NCBI GenBank assembly: GCA_016219925.1
Contig: JACRJU010000015.1
Span: forward strand, 4,672-68,671
Length of the DNA stretch: 64,000 bases
Reading direction: 5' to 3'
From: Candidatus Uhrbacteria bacterium
GTDB lineage: Bacteria > Patescibacteriota > Patescibacteriia > UBA9934 > GWF2-40-263
Positions 12,762-53,300 of the stretch are shown one piece after another. A program made the translations under genes and the position numbers. The notes below the pieces were generated by a model. The model had not been told where the DNA came from. It saw only the letters and a list, made by a program, of their open reading frames with translations, and did not search any database. Positions within the stretch are counted from its first letter, which is position 1, and every line of letters starts with the position of its first letter.

Positions 12762-12838
12762 AGACGGATTTGTGACCATGTCTCCGGGCCAACGGACTTA
12801 TCGCCGTTGTTCCTTCCGACATGGTCACAAATCCGTCT
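12762..12838 (+). repeat. Conserved-core hairpin element, copy 1: 20-bp perfect outer inverted repeat enclosing a core ending in an inner CAACGG/CCGTTG hairpin
   Basis: The outer arms are GACGGATTTGTGACCATGTC at 12763-12782 and GACATGGTCACAAATCCGTC at 12818-12837. The core is TCCGGGCCAACGGACTTATCGCCGTTGTTCCTTCC. It lies between bcp and rplI and ends about 18 nt before the rplI ATG. Confidence 0.8.
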
Positions 12839-17206: not shown

Positions 17207-18262
17207 ATGCCCCTTGAATCGTTTCAAATCGTTCGGGTTCTGCTCTTGAGTGCGCTCGCGTTTGCGACCGCCTTTGCCTGGGCGCCCCTCTTGATGCATG
17301 CCCTGCAAAAGTGGCGCATGGCCAAGACGATTCGACCCGCTTCGGATGCGCCGGTGTATGCAAAACTCCATGCAAAAAAAGTCGGAACGCCAACGATGGG
17401 TGGCATTTTGATCTGGGCGACGGTATTGTTATTGGCGCTGGTTTTTGATGCTCTGTACACGTCCTTTCCGCAAAACGCCATTTTTGCACAGTTCACTTTT
17501 CTTTCGCGCCAGCAGACTTTGCTTCCTTTGGGAGCTCTTGTGGCTTCAGCGATCGTGGGGTTTGTGGATGATTATTTCAACGCGCGCGGTATCGGACCCA
17601 AGGGCGGGGGATTGCGCATGCGTCACCGATTGTTTATCTACACCGCTATTGCGGTGGTGGGGGCATGGTGGTTCCGCGCGAAACTTGATTGGGATTTACT
17701 CCACGTGCCGTTCATTGGTGATTTCAACATTGGCTTGTGGTATGTCCCCTTTTTTATTTTTGTAATTGTGGCCACAGCGTTTTCGGTAAATGAAACTGAC
17801 GGACTGGATGGTTTGGCTGGCGGAACTTTGCTCACCTCGTTTGGCGCCTATGCGATAATCGCTTTCGCGCAGGGGAAATATGATCTGGCGGTTTTTTGCG
17901 GAGTGATTCTTGGAGCGCTTTTGGCTTTTCTGTGGTTCAACATTAATCCAGCCAGTTTTTTTATGGGCGATACGGGTGCGATGGCTTTGGGAGTGACGCT
18001 CGGCATCGTGGCCATGCTCACCAACGCCGCCTTGCTGTTGCCGATTGTCGGTTTTATTTTTTTGTTGGAATCGCTTTCGGTGTTGGTGCAAGTCGGTTGG
18101 CGTCTGACGTTTAAGAAAAAACTTCTTTTATCCGCGCCGTTCCATCACCATCTTGAAGCAACGGGTTGGACCGAACCGCAGATTGTGATGCGGCTATGGG
18201 TGATTTCGATGGTGTTTGCGGCCATTGGAGTCAGTTTGGCTTTGCTTGATGCTTTGATGTAG
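17207..18262 (+). CDS. mraY: Phospho-N-acetylmuramoyl-pentapeptide transferase
   Basis: It is a polytopic membrane protein with the MraY-type motifs GTPTMGG, NAVNLTDGLDGLA-like (NETDGLDGLAGG), and C-terminal HHH. Confidence 0.9.
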   Translation: MPLESFQIVRVLLLSALAFATAFAWAPLLMHALQKWRMAKTIRPASDAPVYAKLHAKKVGTPTMGGILIWATVLLLALVFDALYTSFPQNAIFAQFTFLSRQQTLLPLGALVASAIVGFVDDYFNARGIGPKGGGLRMRHRLFIYTAIAVVGAWWFRAKLDWDLLHVPFIGDFNIGLWYVPFFIFVIVATAFSVNETDGLDGLAGGTLLTSFGAYAIIAFAQGKYDLAVFCGVILGALLAFLWFNINPASFFMGDTGAMALGVTLGIVAMLTNAALLLPIVGFIFLLESLSVLVQVGWRLTFKKKLLLSAPFHHHLEATGWTEPQIVMRLWVISMVFAAIGVSLALLDALM

Positions 18263-20887: not shown

Positions 20888-21016
20888 GAGTTTTGGCAAG
20901 ATGAATTGGGATAAAAAAATCCAGGCAGAAGGGCCTGGGGAAGAGGTGTGCCGTGTTAGGACGACTTGTCCAGGACGAGCGGGAGGCCGAGCTTGCGCAC
21001 GAGCGCGACGAGCTCA
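20888..21016 (-). repeat. 129-bp direct repeat, copy 1 (3' end of paralog gene plus its terminator)
   Basis: It is identical to 21826-21954. On the minus strand it includes the terminator hairpin CCAGGCCCTTCTGCCTGG plus TTTTTTT, and the last ~20 codons of the gene (…AELVALVRKLGLPLVLDKSS). Confidence 0.85.
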
Positions 21017-21708
21017 GCGAGCTTCGCCTCGTGAAGCGTGTTCGGACGTGTGTTGGGTGGTGGCGGCTGGGTGAACGCGTGGTCCCCGACTTTATACGTG
21101 ACCACGTTATTGCGTTCGTGACTCCAGTACGTATTCCATCTTCTGAGCGAGCACAGGGCTTCGATCGTTGTGGAGTCGATCGTCTGCCCGTCAAAGTGGA
21201 AGGCTACGTTGAACGTCAGGAGTTGATCGTTCTGGTGAAAGATGAACGTTGCGTAACCAGGAATGTCGCTGAGAGTGCCATCTATGGAGTACTGCCAGCC
21301 ATAGTTTCCAGATGGGACGAACCCGAACCACTCTGTGTCGCTATGTGCCAAGGGTTCGGGTACTGTTGGGACATCCCGCAGAAGGCCTTCGTAGAACCAT
21401 CGGAGCACGTTTGGTCCTGCAAGGGTGGAAGGGCAGGCGCGCTTGAACTCTTGCAGGAGAGTATGATCGTTCGGATGCATGATGGAGTCCACACTTCCGA
21501 CGATACCGGTTCCCGTGTCCAGCAGGTCCTCGCACTCCTGCAGAAGTTGCGCGAAGAGGTCGCGCGTCAGTCGAGCCTCTGGCGGAATGATCGTATTGTG
21601 TAGCCTCTGCAAGCGCGCTACCGAACGCGCACCAAGCACGAGAATGAGGTATGGCATCCACATACCATGTTCCGCGAGTCGGTCTCGTAGTGTCGACTGA
21701 TAGTTCAT
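20956..21708 (-). CDS. Hypothetical protein, GC-rich, tandem paralog A
   Basis: It is a 250-aa ORF with no recognised domain. It is homologous to the downstream-adjacent paralog B; for example, ILVLGARSVARLQRLHNTIIP aligns with ILMLGARSATHFQHLHDKVIP. Confidence 0.55.
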   Translation of the reverse strand: MNYQSTLRDRLAEHGMWMPYLILVLGARSVARLQRLHNTIIPPEARLTRDLFAQLLQECEDLLDTGTGIVGSVDSIMHPNDHTLLQEFKRACPSTLAGPNVLRWFYEGLLRDVPTVPEPLAHSDTEWFGFVPSGNYGWQYSIDGTLSDIPGYATFIFHQNDQLLTFNVAFHFDGQTIDSTTIEALCSLRRWNTYWSHERNNVVTYKVGDHAFTQPPPPNTRPNTLHEAKLAELVALVRKLGLPLVLDKSS

Positions 21709-21825
21709 TTCACACCTATTGCCTTGTGTTGCCTTCTGCGATTTCCTTTCTTCTGTTTTTGCGATTTCAAGACCAAGTTGAAATTAGTACGATTGTAATA
21801 AACTGTCAACAACCTCACATTCCAC

Positions 21826-21954
21826 GAGTTTTGGCAAGATGAATTGGGATAAAAAAATCCAGGCAGAAGGGCCTGGGGAAGAGGTGTGCCGTGTTAGGAC
21901 GACTTGTCCAGGACGAGCGGGAGGCCGAGCTTGCGCACGAGCGCGACGAGCTCA
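21826..21954 (-). repeat. 129-bp direct repeat, copy 2
   Basis: Identical to 20888-21016. Confidence 0.85.
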
Positions 21955-22714
21955 TTGAGCTTCGCTTGGTCGATCTCGCACTTGTCGGGCAGGTTGGTTT
22001 CCGGAAGCGTGAAGCTGTCATCGGGGAAGATGTAGAAGATCTCGTACCTCTCTCCGTGAACGCTGTAGGAGCAATCCCAGGGGGAGGAAGTTCGAGAAGC
22101 GCTGAAGTCGTCAGGTGCTCAAGCTGTGAGGCCTTGAGGTGCACATGGACGATCAGCATCCGTTCCGTCTTGGTGGCGATGTAGCCTTTGGGGAGTACGA
22201 CTCCTTCGGGCAGATCCGTCTTGCTGTTGTGAAGACGGAAGGTGAAGGTCACAGGGCAGGAGACCTCGCCCAGTATGCACTTGATCCACGTTCCCAGACC
22301 GTCTTCGTCGGACACGAGGATGTCGCGGTTCCAGAGGTCTCCGTCTGGGATGGGCGTCTGCTTGCTGTGTTCGCTCAGGAGGGTTTGGTAGTACCTCTGA
22401 AGCGTTGCCGGTTTTTGGGAATTTCCTCTGCGAGCGCGGTTGAACTCCCGCAGGAGCATCTCGTCGCTGGGACGCGCGAAGCGGCTCGAGCGTTTGGCGT
22501 CGCCTTCTCCCGTCTCCAGCATCCGTTCGCGTTCCTGCTTGAGCGCGATGAAGAGGTTACGAGGAAGCCGACACTCCAGAGGGATCACCTTGTCGTGTAG
22601 ATGCTGGAAGTGCGTTGCGGAACGCGCTCCCAGCATGAGAATGACGAAGGCCGTCCGCAGCCCGTACCTGTCCAGCAGGTCGAGCGTTGGAAACTCACTG
22701 TTCATGGGTATCAC
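21894..22714 (-). CDS. Hypothetical protein, tandem paralog B; apparent frameshift near a C5/G5 homopolymer at ~22088-22096
   Basis: The N-terminal ~205 aa are in one frame. The conserved C-terminus (…KLNELVALVRKLGLPLVLDKSS, stop at 21894-21896) is in another frame. The longest single ORF (21815-22714) instead reads through into a Ser/Arg-rich out-of-frame tail. Confidence 0.45.
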
Positions 22715-36381: not shown

Positions 36382-36444
36382 GTGATCCTTTACCGGAGGG
36401 AACAACGGCGACGAGTCTGTTGGCCCGGAGGCAGAGGATCACTC
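36382..36444 (-). repeat. Conserved-core hairpin element, copy 4 (reverse orientation)
   Basis: The reverse complement of 36395-36428 is CCGGGCCAACAGACTCGTCGCCGTTGTTCCCTCC, the same core as copies 1-3. It is flanked by the complementary arms GTGATCCT/AGGATCAC. Confidence 0.7.
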
Positions 36445-41592: not shown

Positions 41593-41665
41593 GGTACGAT
41601 GATATGAACACAGGTGAATCACGGGAGGAACCCTATGGATTCCCCTGTGTTCATATCATCGTACC
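41593..41665 (+). repeat. 22-bp perfect inverted repeat (hairpin) just downstream of uvrA
   Basis: GGTACGATGATATGAACACAGG at 41593-41614 pairs with CCTGTGTTCATATCATCGTACC at 41644-41665. The loop is 29 nt. Confidence 0.8.
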
Positions 41666-41784
41666 AACGGATTGTTTGCCGGTCATCTTCACGTTGTCCA
41701 TGTTGATGAAAAGAGATCAGGGCATGTCACAAATCCGTCTCATGAATGGTGATGATGTAAGAGCGGGATCTGTCCGTGTACGCC

Positions 41785-41935
41785 GGCCAGTGGGGGCCCG
41801 GCTGGCCATTTCCCCATCCGTGCTCGCAAGCTGCGCGCGGATGGGAGCCCCATGGCCGCCTGCCCACTAGCCGTGACGGCTTATTCATTCGCAATGCGAC
41901 TTGATTGCCCGAGCTTGTCGAGGGCTGCTCTTGCA
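41785..41935 (+). repeat. GC-rich ~150-bp element A (long imperfect hairpin); inverted copy of 47821-47961
   Basis: The reverse complement of 47821-47961 matches this segment with only a few mismatches. Internally it contains CCAGTGGGG…CCCACT and CCATCCG…CGGATGG stems. Confidence 0.8.
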
Positions 41936-42095: not shown

Positions 42096-42650
42096 TTACT
42101 TTACTATCAGAACTCCCTCCATGCCGTTGGCCCGATGAGAGCCGACGTCGCAGTAGAACGCGTAGGTTCCTGGCTTCGTTGGCGCATTGAATGTCACGGC
42201 TTCGCCTTGCTTAATGGCATACTTCAGACCAATTTCGTCAATGACGAACGTGTGAAAGCCGTTGTTCTTTGTGAAGGTGATTTGCATTTTCTCGCCCGGC
42301 TTGGCTGTGAGCGACTTTGGCACAAACGAAAAGTTGGCCGCCTCCATATTGACTTTTTGAGTGGCGCCACCGAGCGAAATGTCGGTTACAGGTACGCCGT
42401 CTTCTGAAGTCGGCTGAGTCGCTTCGTCGTTTTGTGGAGTGATCGTTGCCGAGATATTGCCGGACTGGACAACGGTTTCGCCCTGCTCGTTTTCTTGGAC
42501 TTTTTCTTGTGCGCTTTCGGAGGCTTCTTCGCCGGCCTGATCGAGCGTATTTGGTTGAGAATCGGCAAGAGGAGCTTTTACGGAAGCCGCGGGGGCACAG
42601 CCAGCACCAATGAGCGCAAGGGCTGGCAACAAAAGGAGGTACTTGAGCAT
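42096..42650 (-). CDS. Lipoprotein with type-1 copper (cupredoxin/plastocyanin-like) domain
   Basis: The lipobox is LIGAGC. At the C-terminus, NNGFHTFV…YAFYCDVGSHRANGMEGVLIV supplies the His, Cys, His and Met ligand pattern of blue copper proteins. Confidence 0.7.
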   Translation of the reverse strand: MLKYLLLLPALALIGAGCAPAASVKAPLADSQPNTLDQAGEEASESAQEKVQENEQGETVVQSGNISATITPQNDEATQPTSEDGVPVTDISLGGATQKVNMEAANFSFVPKSLTAKPGEKMQITFTKNNGFHTFVIDEIGLKYAIKQGEAVTFNAPTKPGTYAFYCDVGSHRANGMEGVLIVK

Positions 42651-42678
42651 AAGAGAGATAATGAGTTAATGGTGCCGT

Positions 42679-42860
42679 TATAGTCATCACATTATGAAAC
42701 GGGACTCGATAAACGGTAAAAATTTCACAGGACTTGTTTTTCACTGATAAAAATACTCTCGGTATCTACGGATACCGTTCGCATTTTTATCAGCTCCAAA
42801 ACGGCGTTCTGTAAAATTTTTCCTCGTTTCTAAGTCCCGTTTCATAATGTGATGACTATA
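42679..42860 (+). repeat. 182-bp near-perfect palindromic element (28-bp terminal inverted repeats plus nested 11-bp and 7-bp inverted repeats); MITE-like
   Basis: The terminal repeats TATAGTCATCACATTATGAAACGGGACT at 42679-42706 and AGTCCCGTTTCATAATGTGATGACTATA at 42833-42860 are perfect. Nested inside are CTGATAAAAAT/ATTTTTATCAG and CGGTATC-TAC-GGATACCG. The arms between the repeats are also largely complementary. Confidence 0.8.
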
Positions 42861-42908
42861 GGTTAACATCGTTGTGCGGGGCCCGCAACAAGAAAACGTC
42901 AATGAATT

Positions 42909-44237
42909 ATGATCCCAGGATATATCGCAATAAGGAACAAAACGTTGCCGGATGAACCCGGAGTCTATTTTTATTATGACGTCGCGGGCAAGCTCCTCTA
43001 TGTAGGGAAAGCCACTTCTTTGCGCTCACGCGTCGGTTCCTATTTCACCAAAGCGCATGAAAATCGTATTGCCGATATGGTGGCACAGATCCAGCGGATC
43101 GATTATATTGTCACGCCGACCGTGATTGAAGCTTTGGTACTCGAGGCCAATCAAATCAAAGCCAAGAAACCCAAATACAATATTCTCCAACGCGACGACA
43201 AGAGTTTTTTGTATTTGGTGATCACGAACGAGCCGTATCCAAAACCCGTTTTGATGCGTGGGCATGAGCTCGAGCGATTGGGAATTGATCCCTTTAGAAC
43301 CGCCCTGACGGCGCAAGCCAAGAGAAAATTTTTGCGCGTATTTGGCCCGTATCCCTCTGGGGCTTCGCTTAAAAAAGCCCTCGATCTCATCCGTCGAGCC
43401 ATCCCGTGGAGCGATTGCAATCCACCATCAGTGACCGGCCGCCACCGCCCATGCTTCAACGTTCATCTCGAAAAATGTCCGGGCGTCTGTACGGGAGCCA
43501 TCACCCAAAAAGCGTATCGTGCCATCATTCGCCAGCTCGTTCTTTTTTTTGATGGAAAGAAAAAGGTTTTGATGCGCGCGATGGAGCGTAATATGAAGCG
43601 TGCAGCTGATGCGTTGAAATTCGAAGAGGCGGCCGCGATACGCCGACACGTATATGCTCTTCAACATATTCAAGACGTGGCGCTGATTTCGCGTGAGGAT
43701 ATTGAGTTGCCGTATGCGACATCAGTGTCGGACGAGGCTGTTGATCTTGATGGACGAATTGAAGCTTACGACATCAGCCATATCTCCGGGACATCCGCCG
43801 TTGGCTCAATGATTGTTTTTGAAGAGGGGAAGCCAACCAAGTCGCTCTATCGTAAGTTCAAAATTAAAACAGTGATCGGTCCAGACGATGTGGGGATGCT
43901 TGAAGAAATGATGCGTCGTCGATTGGCGCGAACAAAAATCGCGCCGAAGGCCTGGCCCTTGCCGCAGATCATGGTGATTGATGGCGGGGAGGGGCAGGTG
44001 CGGCGCGTGCAGGATGTCATGAATGAATTGGGAATCCAGGTTCCTCTCATGGGGATCGCAAAAGGATTTGATCGTAAACAGGATCGTTTGGTGTTTGATC
44101 ATTCAAATCTCGAGCTTCTGCGAGTGGCGAAGCGTGGCAAAGAGTTGTTTCAGTGGGCGCGCGACGAGGCGCATCGGTTTGCGGTTTCGTATCACCGATC
44201 TTTGCGTTTAAAGCGTTTTTTTGGCGCGAAGCGTTGA
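42909..44237 (+). CDS. uvrC: UvrC-like excinuclease (GIY-YIG N-terminal domain; 442 aa, lacks the usual C-terminal extension)
   Basis: PGVYFYYDVAGKLLYVGKATSLRSRVGSYF is the canonical GIY-YIG start of UvrC. The Cys-containing region (CPGVC) and the RNase H-like UvrC region follow. Confidence 0.75.
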   Translation: MIPGYIAIRNKTLPDEPGVYFYYDVAGKLLYVGKATSLRSRVGSYFTKAHENRIADMVAQIQRIDYIVTPTVIEALVLEANQIKAKKPKYNILQRDDKSFLYLVITNEPYPKPVLMRGHELERLGIDPFRTALTAQAKRKFLRVFGPYPSGASLKKALDLIRRAIPWSDCNPPSVTGRHRPCFNVHLEKCPGVCTGAITQKAYRAIIRQLVLFFDGKKKVLMRAMERNMKRAADALKFEEAAAIRRHVYALQHIQDVALISREDIELPYATSVSDEAVDLDGRIEAYDISHISGTSAVGSMIVFEEGKPTKSLYRKFKIKTVIGPDDVGMLEEMMRRRLARTKIAPKAWPLPQIMVIDGGEGQVRRVQDVMNELGIQVPLMGIAKGFDRKQDRLVFDHSNLELLRVAKRGKELFQWARDEAHRFAVSYHRSLRLKRFFGAKR

Positions 44238-47118: not shown

Positions 47119-47193
47119 ATTTATCCTGCCTTCGGGCCAACGGACTCATCGCCGTTGTTCCCTCCGGCAGGATAGATCGTGATCGGTTCGTGC
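47119..47193 (+). repeat. Conserved-core hairpin element, copy 2
   Basis: The outer arms CGATCACGATTTATCCTGCC and GGCAGGATAGATCGTGATCG are complementary with one U·G. The core is TTCGGGCCAACGGACTCATCGCCGTTGTTCCCTCCG. Confidence 0.8.
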
Positions 47194-47819: not shown

Positions 47820-47820
47820 A

Positions 47821-47961
47821 GCCCTCGACAAGCTCGGGCAATAAAGTCGCATTGCGAATGGATAAGTAGTCACGGCCAGTGGGGAGGCGGCCATGGGGCC
47901 CCCATCCGCGCGCAGCTTGCGAGCACGGATGGGGAAATGGCCAGCCGGGCCCCCACTGGCC
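47821..47961 (-). repeat. GC-rich ~150-bp element B (inverted copy of 41785-41935)
   Basis: It is the reverse complement of element A. It is followed by TCTGTACTGATCTGAAATCTGTATCT, a direct copy of the motif at 42008-42033. Confidence 0.8.
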
Positions 47962-48066
47962 GTATATCCATCATCTGTCTATCTGTACTGATCTGAAATC
48001 TGTATCTTCTGTAATCTGTACTTCCGAGCTTGTCTCGGTCTCTTTTTTTGTTATACTTACCTGCGT

Positions 48067-51892: not shown

Positions 51893-53241
51893 CGAAGCAA
51901 AATCGTGGCCAAACCGAGGAACGTCAGGAATCCCAGGACGTCTGTCGCGGTGGTGATGAACACCGTGGCTGAAGAGGCTGGATCTTTTCCGAGACGTTTC
52001 ATAATGAGCGGGACGAGTGTTCCAAAAAATCCGGCGACAAGAAGATTTGTCATCATGGCGATGCTTAAGACGAGGGCTAAACGCAGATCATGATTAAACA
52101 AGATGACAATGGCCGCTACAATCAGACCGTTGATCACCCCGTTGATGAGACCGGCTAAAAGTTCACGAGAAATCGTCGGCCACGCCGTTTTCAAATCGAT
52201 TTGATTGAGCGTGATGCCGCGCACCAAAACGGCGAGCGTTTGCGTTCCGGCGTTGCCGCCCATGCCTGCAACGATTGGCATATAGACGGCCAGCAAAACA
52301 TATTTTGAAATGGTTTCATCAAACAAGCTCACCGTGAACGAAGCGAGAAACGCCGTGGCAAGGTTGATGATGAGCCATTTGTAACGCGAGGATACCTTCG
52401 CCCATGTGGAATCTGCGACCGTTTCCTCCTGACGCACGCCGGCCAAATGGTAAAGCGAAGCGGATTCGTGTTTAGAGATGCGACTGAGCAAGTCATCGGA
52501 ATAAATAACCCCGATCACGTTTCCGGTTTTACCTCGTACGACCACGCGCGCGTGCGGATGCTGGCGGAAGACTTCCAGGACTTCTGCATGGTTGGCGTCA
52601 TGGGCGATGGAGGGGACGTGTCGGATGAGTCGTTCGATCGGCTCGCTTGGACGAGCGATGGCCAAGGCGTGGCCGGGAATGTAGCCGATGATTTTGTTCG
52701 CGCGCATCGCGATGACGGTTGGGATGCGGCCCGTGCGCGATTCATGCTCTTTGATTTTGCGCGCTACGGCTTGAACCGTTTCACCCGTTTCGATTTGGAT
52801 ATAGTCCGCACTCATGAGTCCCGCGGCCGTTTGCGGATCAAACGACGACAAGAGCTCGACGCTATTTTTCAGCTCGCGCGTGAGGCGCGAGATCAAACGG
52901 TGTCGTCGGAGTTTTGGGAATTGTCTTAAGAGGTCCGTTGTTTGATCGGGATCCAACTCATTGAGCGCTTCAATGATGACTTCATCTTTGATTTTTCTTG
53001 CGATGTCATTGAGGGTTTGTTTACCGAGGTTGCACAAGAGCACCGCTCGAATTTCCGGCGCAAGCGAAAGGAAGCGTTTGACACGCTCCTTTTTGTTGAA
53101 TTGCATTTGGTGCACGAGTTCACGCACGTCGCGCGCGGAAAATTTTTTTGTTGCCATACCTCCGTTGGCTTCTATTGTACACCGAGCTTTCGCTTCAAAC
53201 AAAAAAGACCTCCCATTGGATGAAGACCGATTTGTGACCAT
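51889..53241 (-). CDS. mgtE: Magnesium transporter MgtE
   Basis: It has the N-terminal MgtE_N domain, tandem CBS domains, and a C-terminal five-TM MgtE domain (GNAGTQ, PLIMKRLGKDPA). Confidence 0.85.
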   Translation of the reverse strand: MVTNRSSSNGRSFLFEAKARCTIEANGGMATKKFSARDVRELVHQMQFNKKERVKRFLSLAPEIRAVLLCNLGKQTLNDIARKIKDEVIIEALNELDPDQTTDLLRQFPKLRRHRLISRLTRELKNSVELLSSFDPQTAAGLMSADYIQIETGETVQAVARKIKEHESRTGRIPTVIAMRANKIIGYIPGHALAIARPSEPIERLIRHVPSIAHDANHAEVLEVFRQHPHARVVVRGKTGNVIGVIYSDDLLSRISKHESASLYHLAGVRQEETVADSTWAKVSSRYKWLIINLATAFLASFTVSLFDETISKYVLLAVYMPIVAGMGGNAGTQTLAVLVRGITLNQIDLKTAWPTISRELLAGLINGVINGLIVAAIVILFNHDLRLALVLSIAMMTNLLVAGFFGTLVPLIMKRLGKDPASSATVFITTATDVLGFLTFLGLATILLR

Positions 53242-53300
53242 ATCTCCAGGCCAACGGACTCATCGTCGTTGTTCCCTCCGATAGGGTCACAAATCTGTCT
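53224..53300 (+). repeat. Conserved-core hairpin element, copy 3 (overlaps the mgtE start codon)
   Basis: The arms AGACCGATTTGTGACCATATC and GATAGGGTCACAAATCTGTCT have two mismatches. The core is TCCAGGCCAACGGACTCATCGTCGTTGTTCCCTCCG. The mgtE ATG (complement of 53239-53241) lies inside the 5' arm. Confidence 0.75.

Follow-up and report, generated by a model that had tools for sequence, protein, structure and literature searches.

The DNA analysed here, a stretch of 64,000 nucleotides from Candidatus Uhrbacteria (the window), contains a cupredoxin lipoprotein gene (42096-42650, minus strand) and a divergently oriented uvrC (42909-44237, plus strand), both identified with the backing of Pfam, and 182 of the 258 bp between them are occupied by a near-perfect palindrome. 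The question raised by this locus is whether the palindrome is a mobile element, as its MITE-like size and architecture suggested in the initial annotation, or a cruciform or transcribed hairpin belonging to this particular intergenic region. The comparisons described below make it highly probable that 42679-42860 is one copy of a family of non-autonomous DNA transposons (MITEs) of Candidatus Uhrbacteria. The family is previously undescribed but is of a well-known kind, the miniature non-coding transposons that insert at TA. What lifts it above the routine is that some copies lie exactly in translation signals with the open reading frames kept, that the full length of the element is a covarying hairpin, and that the element has a polarity.

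Sequence and Fold of the Palindrome

The segment 42679-42860 reads TATAGTCATCACATTATGAAACGGGACT ... AGTCCCGTTTCATAATGTGATGACTATA and has the palindromic structure first attributed to it. Its 28-bp termini are perfect, with TATAGTCATCACATTATGAAACGGGACT at 42679-42706 on the plus strand and at 42833-42860 on the minus strand (0 mismatches); this sequence occurs exactly twice in the window and found a match in none of 100 shuffles. The arms are 82% complementary over 55 nt, and an 11-bp inverted repeat is nested at 42744-42754 / 42783-42793. The central palindrome has the stem CGGTATC/GATACCG as originally proposed, but its loop is the 4-nt TACG and not TAC, a trivial correction. Folded as single strands, the plus and minus strands each form one long stem-loop, with energies of −93 and −100 kcal/mol, respectively, compared with −36 to −38 kcal/mol for shuffled sequences, which places the fold far above chance (z of −14 to −15; −13.7 for the plus and −15.4 for the minus strand). 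The central hairpin occupies 42744-42793, with arms CTGATAAAAAT/ATTTTTATCAG around CGGTATC-TACG-GATACCG, and is flanked by an inner left arm (42707-42743) and an inner right arm (42794-42832), which are complementary save for small internal loops in the minimum free energy structures. Because an identical element is present at 748-929 of L004, a contig of Logan SRR12113407, in which the same population was assembled independently, the palindrome is not an assembly artefact. No Rfam family was detected in the window at gathering thresholds except seven tRNAs, and none at E ≤ 1 in 42600-42950.

Copies of the Element at Other Loci

Exact 20-mers of the terminal repeat, searched in 185,579 species genomes, led to one other MAG, Patescibacteria FW215_bin.11, with matches on three contigs (L001-L003), and in metagenome contigs they gave four matches (L005-L008). 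A search of 1.8 billion representative proteins with a 42-aa open reading frame called within the element gave one useful match, which led to an additional copy (L020). The family is thus known from eight loci in all, at least three of them in one MAG (FW215_bin.11); besides the window copy, elements of 120-183 bp with this terminal repeat as their boundary occur at seven unrelated loci in Uhrbacteria and Patescibacteria assemblies. The complete copies are those at 6908-7089 of L008 (182 bp, the same length as in the window), 8630-8812 of L006 (183 bp), 2057-2237 of L020 (181 bp), 5446-5626 of L007 (181 bp) and 255-435 of L005 (181 bp), the last two representing a shared locus, together with a shorter form at 6487-6606 of L002 (120 bp); half copies broken at contig ends lie at 7409-7526 of L003 and 1-118 of L001. 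The flanking genes differ at each locus and include mreB and a DUF4012 gene, a Wzy-type gene and a conserved hypothetical gene, secG and a thioredoxin-like gene, an htrA-like gene, an fn3 gene and a truncated integrase. For every host that carries a copy, the best protein matches are to Candidatus Uhrbacteria.

The copies share the central hairpin, which has the common form xGAxAAAAA..GTAkC..GmTAC..TTTTTxTC with a compensatory difference between GTATC/GATAC and GTAGC/GCTAC. The L002 copy is a 120-bp deletion derivative that lacks this hairpin, and the junction is at a GCG microhomology common to both sides; deletion at a short shared sequence is expected for slippage across a palindrome. The half copy in L001 (region 1-400) adjoins what is left of a tyrosine recombinase gene, its last ~95 codons, in which the HxxR, H and Y motifs are present and the N-terminal part is missing, and genes for a MazF-like toxin and its antitoxin lie beside this remnant; this copy seems to have landed in or beside a decayed mobile region.

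A protein-coding reading of the element was considered and rejected. A frame is open through the whole of the L008 copy but is broken in L006, L007 and the window, with a stop at codon 5 of the same frame in L007, and open reading frames through the element are therefore not conserved. The 42-aa frames called in the window (42741-42869, minus strand) and in L004 (810-938), and the 50-aa counterpart in L020, are annotation artefacts of the repeat that are useful as protein-database handles for finding copies.

The copy number is low, which counts against a MITE: the element is present once in the 64-kb window, where searches with a 28-mer (up to 3 mismatches) and a 27-mer (up to 8 mismatches) revealed no further copies, and a family profile run with nhmmer over 165 kb added no new ones. 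There was no match to the element in viral contigs, plasmids or phages, and no long element with the exact 20-mer turned up in the genome and metagenome scans.

Empty Sites and the TA Duplication

The relatives that are nearest at uvrC (UvrC 73-76% identical) keep the gene order uvrA, cupredoxin (reverse), uvrC without the element, and their orthologous cupredoxin-uvrC spacers are 47 bp (L009) and 75 bp (L012) long, compared with 258 bp in the window. Alignment of the filled and empty sites shows a single TA in the relative exactly at the junction. The window has GGTGCCGT-(TA-element-TA)-GGTTAACAT where L009 has GGTGC-TA-GGTTAACAT. Two other copies independently give the same result: L008 has aaaggaggttcacc-(TA..TA)-TGTTTCTCAAAAAAATCGG where L014/L015, with an MreB that is 97% identical, have aaaggaggccttcTATGTTTCTCAAAAAAATCGG (also written as AAAGGAGGttcacc-(TA...TA)-TGTTTCTCAAAAAAATCGG compared with AAAGGAGGccttcTATGTTTCTCAAAAAAATCGG), and L002 has gagcgctacc-(TA..TA)-tgattc where L019/L018 have gagcgtcaccTATGAttt, the flanking genes overlapping by ATGA. 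Because removal of the element together with one TA restores the sequence of the relative at all three sites, the mobile unit is 178 bp (42681-42858), its inverted repeats are 26 bp and its target duplication is the 2-bp TA; the proposal that the termini sit in a TA target is thus upheld. It should be recognized that these empty sites are from related species rather than the same strain (UvrC 76% and MreB 97% identical, and 79-81% identity in the third case), and that exact look-ups of the UvrC and cupredoxin sequences of the window for a within-strain empty site returned only one other contig, which has the same filled site.

In the window, the left and right copies of the duplicated TA are at 42679-42680 and 42859-42860, and both assignments are based on the three empty-site comparisons. 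Between them lies the transposon proper, TAGTCATCAC...GTGATGACTA, for which the family profile, the alignments and the lack of a conserved open reading frame define a non-coding element that is on the minus strand in the family orientation (A to B). Its B-side terminal repeat, TAGTCATCACATTATGAAACGGGACT (42681-42706, plus strand), is the perfect complement of 42833-42858 and also bounds the elements of L002, L005-L008 and L020. The A-side repeat (42833-42858, minus strand) adjoins uvrC, and its first 22 nt are invariant in seven family sequences save for one base in L020. Small size, a non-coding sequence, terminal inverted repeats, target duplication and filled and empty sites, features of bacterial MITEs, are all found in this family, and the reading of the palindrome as a MITE is borne out by the combination of copies at unrelated loci, TA duplication and empty orthologous sites.

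The L020 copy (flanks within 2048-2251) has the surroundings AGAGGTCTC-TA-(element)-TA-CTA-TA-GAGACCTCT. This single case is compatible with a 20-bp perfect palindrome centred on TA as the original site, where an earlier excision left a TA-CTA-TA footprint of the Tc1/mariner type before re-insertion; alternatively, the flank may have arisen by local duplication of CTATA. A motif common to the L020 flanks and position 18260 of the window, TAGAGACCTCT, was discarded, as it has one match in the window and was equalled in 7 of 100 shuffles.

Polarity, Covariation and Strand Asymmetry

Only one relative orientation allows the copies to be aligned from end to end. For the window copy this is the minus strand, which scores 149 bits with a family profile as opposed to 62 bits for the plus strand. 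This gives the element a polarity, in the order repeat, module A, central hairpin, module B and repeat. Three subfamilies can be distinguished, one comprising the window copy and L020, the second L008, L006, L002, L003 and L001, and the third L007/L005. The interiors of the copies have diverged, yet their arms are still complementary: in a consensus stem of 64 pairs, 96.6% of cells are paired, compared with 35-46% when the partners are slid, and changes have occurred on both sides in 23 of the 64 pairs, a number that was reached in 0 of 500 shuffles. In helix 2 of the family structure, which includes the inner arms, both sides have changed in 12 of 17 pairs, and even the terminal repeats of L020 have changed together (ATTATG to ACTATG and CATAAT to CATAGT).

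The two strands are not equivalent. Folding is more favourable for the A-to-B strand than for its complement in each of the six full copies, by 8-17 kcal/mol, and this results from G.U pairs, alignment A2 containing about 24 G.U cells and about 5 A.C cells. The A-side repeat is also better conserved, with 0-1 mismatches as opposed to up to 5 in the B-side repeat. From the aligned sequences, it seems that pairing within a single strand, of either RNA or DNA, has been constrained, although the compensatory changes may alternatively have been generated by templated correction of one arm against the other in a quasi-palindrome. In ordinary MITEs only the ends are needed, and the compensatory evolution of the whole stem with a consistent strand asymmetry suggests an extra constraint that is not explained by a plain transposon model.

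Insertions in Translation Signals

The A-side end of the element always faces a gene that reads away from it. The distance from this end to the start codon is 0 nt for mreB in L008 and for the Wzy-type gene in L002, 5 nt for the gene of a 214-aa protein in L006, 15 nt for the fn3 gene in L020, about 35 nt for the gene of a 139-aa protein in L003, 48 nt for uvrC in the window and 166 nt for the thioredoxin-like gene in L007. The L008 copy follows AAGGAGG (plus 6 nt) and precedes the ATG of mreB, so that these two signals are 180 nt apart, and the open reading frame is unbroken. In L002, an overlapping ATGA stop/start has been split by the element and both proteins are unchanged in length: the upstream frame ends at a TAG supplied by the first bases of the element and the downstream ATG is rebuilt from the duplicated TA, so placed that it is at the opposite base of the stem from the stop TAG.

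These insertions raise the possibility that the MITE has also been selected as an RNA hairpin, in which a 90-bp stem, transcribed as part of an operon, joins its flanks so that the Shine-Dalgarno (SD) sequence (L008) or the stop codon (L002) is brought next to the start codon and downstream expression survives; the hairpin might also be a processing or stability signal. This explanation adds to the transposon model and does not replace it, and we regard it as doubtful, with evidence on both sides. The positions of the L008 and L002 copies with their reading frames intact, the short distances of 0 to 48 nt between the A-side end and most of the start codons, and the compensatory changes and near-complete pairing of the stem are consistent with it, and there is a precedent in phage T4, where genes 38 and 25 restore the spacing of SD and AUG by means of a hairpin (PMC3014915). 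Long stem-loop transcripts and processing by RNase III are likewise known for other bacterial MITEs (PMC2229807). On the other hand, the sense mRNA corresponds to the weaker-folding strand at all three loci with co-directional flanks (L008, L002 and L006), a small sample with which the half-known contexts of L003, L001 and L020 agree. With a folding energy of −83 to −95 kcal/mol, the stem might just as well act as a block to ribosomes or as a transcription terminator, and an SD-like motif is present at only 8 of the 29 gene starts checked in the window, so that initiation may not depend on SD sequences. Templated correction between the arms, as noted above, could also account for the compensatory changes.

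Analysis of these two loci leads us to infer that the folded stem in the mRNA would set the SD sequence or the stop codon beside the start codon across the base of the helix, and a hairpin of this type may allow the element to be tolerated in transcribed, gene-dense DNA. The fuller form of the proposal, that the hairpin, once folded in mRNA, drops out of the linear path, so that translation is initiated or re-initiated across the base of the 90-bp stem and the element is rendered harmless in gene-dense genomes, is a speculative one that we consider unlikely to be correct. If true, it would represent a bacterial analogue of ribosome shunting, or an extreme form of split ribosome-binding site, and selection for a harmless hairpin would account for the bias in orientation as well as for the compensatory changes in the arms. 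The L008 and L002 copies are natural test cases for what a 180-bp hairpin does when it separates a start codon from translation signals. In T4, the split ribosome-binding sites of genes 38 and 25 have the same geometry of SD, hairpin and AUG as the mreB copy in L008, but the T4 hairpins are about 15-20 nt and non-mobile, whereas the stem-loop in L008 is 180 nt and its bridging is hypothetical (PMC3014915).

The Proposed Mobilizing Enzyme

The transposon model for the family, to which the hairpin would be an addition, calls for a transposase made elsewhere that would bind both repeats, excise the element and insert it at a TA, which is duplicated. The enzyme may be of the IS630/Tc1-mariner type, acting in trans through cut-and-paste transposition. 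Elements of this type insert at TA with duplication of the TA, and repeats of ~24 bp are sufficient in cis (PMC2170065). The consensus for Tc1/mariner ends is TAYAGYNR (quoted in PMC3464196), which the end of the present element, TA-TAGTCA (TATAGTCA), matches at 8 of 8 positions, although the motif is short and weak and the match is supportive only. The TA duplication, the length of the repeats and this terminal sequence therefore point to an IS630/Tc1-mariner-type transposase acting in trans, and should be viewed as resemblances and not as proof. At all eight sites, TAG or CTA is present on one side of the TA, with a full CTAG only in L006 and in the empty site of L009; a title in the reference list of PMC2170065 refers to a preference of IS630 for CTAG.

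No transposase with matching ends was found. Pfam searches of the 10 window open reading frames without an assigned identity returned either housekeeping families or no match, and reading by eye the lists of translated frames in the flanks of part of the loci brought no transposase to notice. No DDE gene adjoins the L001 or L003 copy, whose neighbours are the truncated tyrosine recombinase, the toxin-antitoxin genes and an ABC transporter.

Movement of the palindrome as single-stranded DNA by an HUH/Y1 enzyme, in the manner of REP/BIME with RAYT or of an IS200/IS605-derived element and with no DDE transposase, would agree with the fact that the whole element is a hairpin of which one strand folds better in every full copy, and with an apparent bias in orientation relative to flanking genes (three fully and three partly informative cases, all in one direction). 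However, REP/RAYT and IS200/IS605-derived elements are without long terminal inverted repeats or target duplication and insert beside a fixed tetra- or pentanucleotide, whereas the present element has exact 26-bp repeats and a TA duplication, which is exact at three sites, and no Y1 transposase gene was seen. Mobilization of this kind is accordingly very improbable.

Likely Effect of the Insertion on the Cupredoxin-uvrC Locus

Insertion of a TA-duplicating transposon accounts for the oversized cupredoxin-uvrC spacer, which matters for its annotation. Subtraction of the element and one TA (258 − 180 bp), together with comparison with relatives that lack the element, gives an original spacer of 78 bp, of which 28 bp remain on the left (42651-42678) and 48 bp on the right (42861-42908), the latter containing the GGTTAACAT that is conserved in L009. 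On the transposon model, the element entered at the TA of ...GCCGT-TA-GGTTAACAT..., splitting this divergent control region into its 28- and 48-bp parts.

The reconstructed empty site has, on the minus strand, TTAACC-17-CATTAT ending 7 nt before the ATG of the cupredoxin gene, a promoter-like pair by consensus match only. The insertion point is directly after TTAACC and the pair is thereby separated. In the filled site, a hybrid promoter toward cupredoxin is predicted, again by consensus match only, in which ATGACT from the end of the repeat is 18 nt from the resident CATTAT, 7 nt before ATG (42658-42687, minus strand), and on the other side TTCATA of the right repeat is similarly 17 nt from a resident TAACAT, also a consensus match only. 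An outward-facing CATAAT is present in both repeats and is preceded at 17-18 nt by a weak −35 hexamer, TTTACC on the cupredoxin side and TTTCCT on the uvrC side. The resulting outward promoter-like sites within the element, TTTACC-18-CATAAT (42691-42720, minus strand) and its weaker twin (42819-42848, plus strand), are consensus matches only, and the number of promoter-like sites in the element region (2 observed, 1.3 expected from shuffles) shows no enrichment. The ends of the repeats may act as outward −35/−10 elements that replace promoter parts separated by the insertion. The −10-like CATTAT, being 7 nt before the ATG at 42650, suggests that the cupredoxin transcript would be leaderless.

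The divergent intergenic position and the overlap of promoter-like hexamers with the ends of the element might favour a resident, non-mobile palindrome of the cupredoxin/uvrC promoter region, such as an operator for a dimeric regulator or a cruciform, but its absence from relatives with the same gene order and the presence of the same element beside unrelated genes (mreB, Wzy-type, secG, htrA-like and fn3) render this exceedingly unlikely.

Relation to Known Elements

The MITE family described here can be compared with those of other bacteria. The Correia repeat, like the present element, begins with TATAGT. Beyond these first bases, the Uhrbacteria element is probably unrelated in sequence to Correia/NEMIS, whose hosts belong to another phylum, and it is present in a handful of copies, compared with hundreds in Neisseria. 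In architecture, the two are similar, the Correia/NEMIS elements being about 100-160 bp with ~24-bp inverted repeats and TA termini with duplication; they have putative divergent outward promoters, give long stem-loop transcripts that are cut by RNase III and have no known transposase (PMC2229807). More generally, the bacterial MITEs that include Correia/NEMIS, RUP and ERIC are <200 bp and have terminal repeats, TA termini, long stem-loop transcripts and putative outward promoters (PMC2229807).

Among the closest parallels are the MITEs derived from IS630/Tc1-mariner elements, which have the same TA target and duplication, repeats of ~24-28 bp and a TA-YAGY end (PMC2170065, PMC2229807, PMC3464196) and are likewise small, non-coding and mostly at gene boundaries. 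An example is RUP of Streptococcus pneumoniae, which is linked to IS630-Spn1, and parent elements include ISY100 (PMC2170065, PMC2229807). The Uhrbacteria element differs from these in its Candidate Phyla Radiation host, in being a covarying, full-length, oriented hairpin, in its low copy number and in that no cognate transposase was found. The ERIC/IRU elements, palindromic repeats of enterobacteria, are also imperfect palindromes of 100-180 bp that are transcribed within operons and oriented with respect to flanking genes (PMC2229807), but their terminal repeats are 4-7 bp, their hosts are different and they have no sequence relation to the Uhrbacteria element.

Candidate Phyla Radiation genomes are small, with densely packed genes, and few mobile elements are thought to occur in them. 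The searchable literature yielded no account of MITEs for the Candidate Phyla Radiation or Patescibacteria. The family can serve as a marker of recent movement and exchange of DNA among Uhrbacteria: the repeat has an identical 22-nt core in lineages that share only 75-90% identity between their UvrC and MreB orthologues. The repeat sequence is also a handle for finding the transposase, and the family explains spurious small open reading frames in annotation, such as the 42-aa gene in L004.

Other Repeats in the Window

A second palindromic family is present in the window as a 77-bp element with perfect 21-bp inverted ends, AGACGGATTTGTGACCATGTC, for which 12762-12838 and 53224-53300 include one diverged full copy; there are also several partial copies, with related cores at 36393-36434 and 47127-47169 and a fragment at 41723-41744. 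This is probably another MITE-like family. A 145-nt direct repeat (20888-21032 / 21826-21970, 97% identical) goes with a pair of neighbouring paralogues (20956-21708 and 21815-22714, minus strand), and no Pfam match was obtained for either gene. Near the cupredoxin-uvrC locus, the uvrA-cupredoxin spacer is 530 bp in the window, whereas the two genes overlap in L009, and a 73-bp hairpin at 41593-41665, 29 nt past the uvrA stop, has 28-nt arms that are 96% complementary and is single in the window. Finally, a pair of 143-nt inverted repeats that are 95% identical (41784-41926 / 47820-47962), each containing a GC-rich hairpin of ~90 nt, brackets a 5.9-kb segment with the cupredoxin gene, the MITE, uvrC, mraZ and rsmH.
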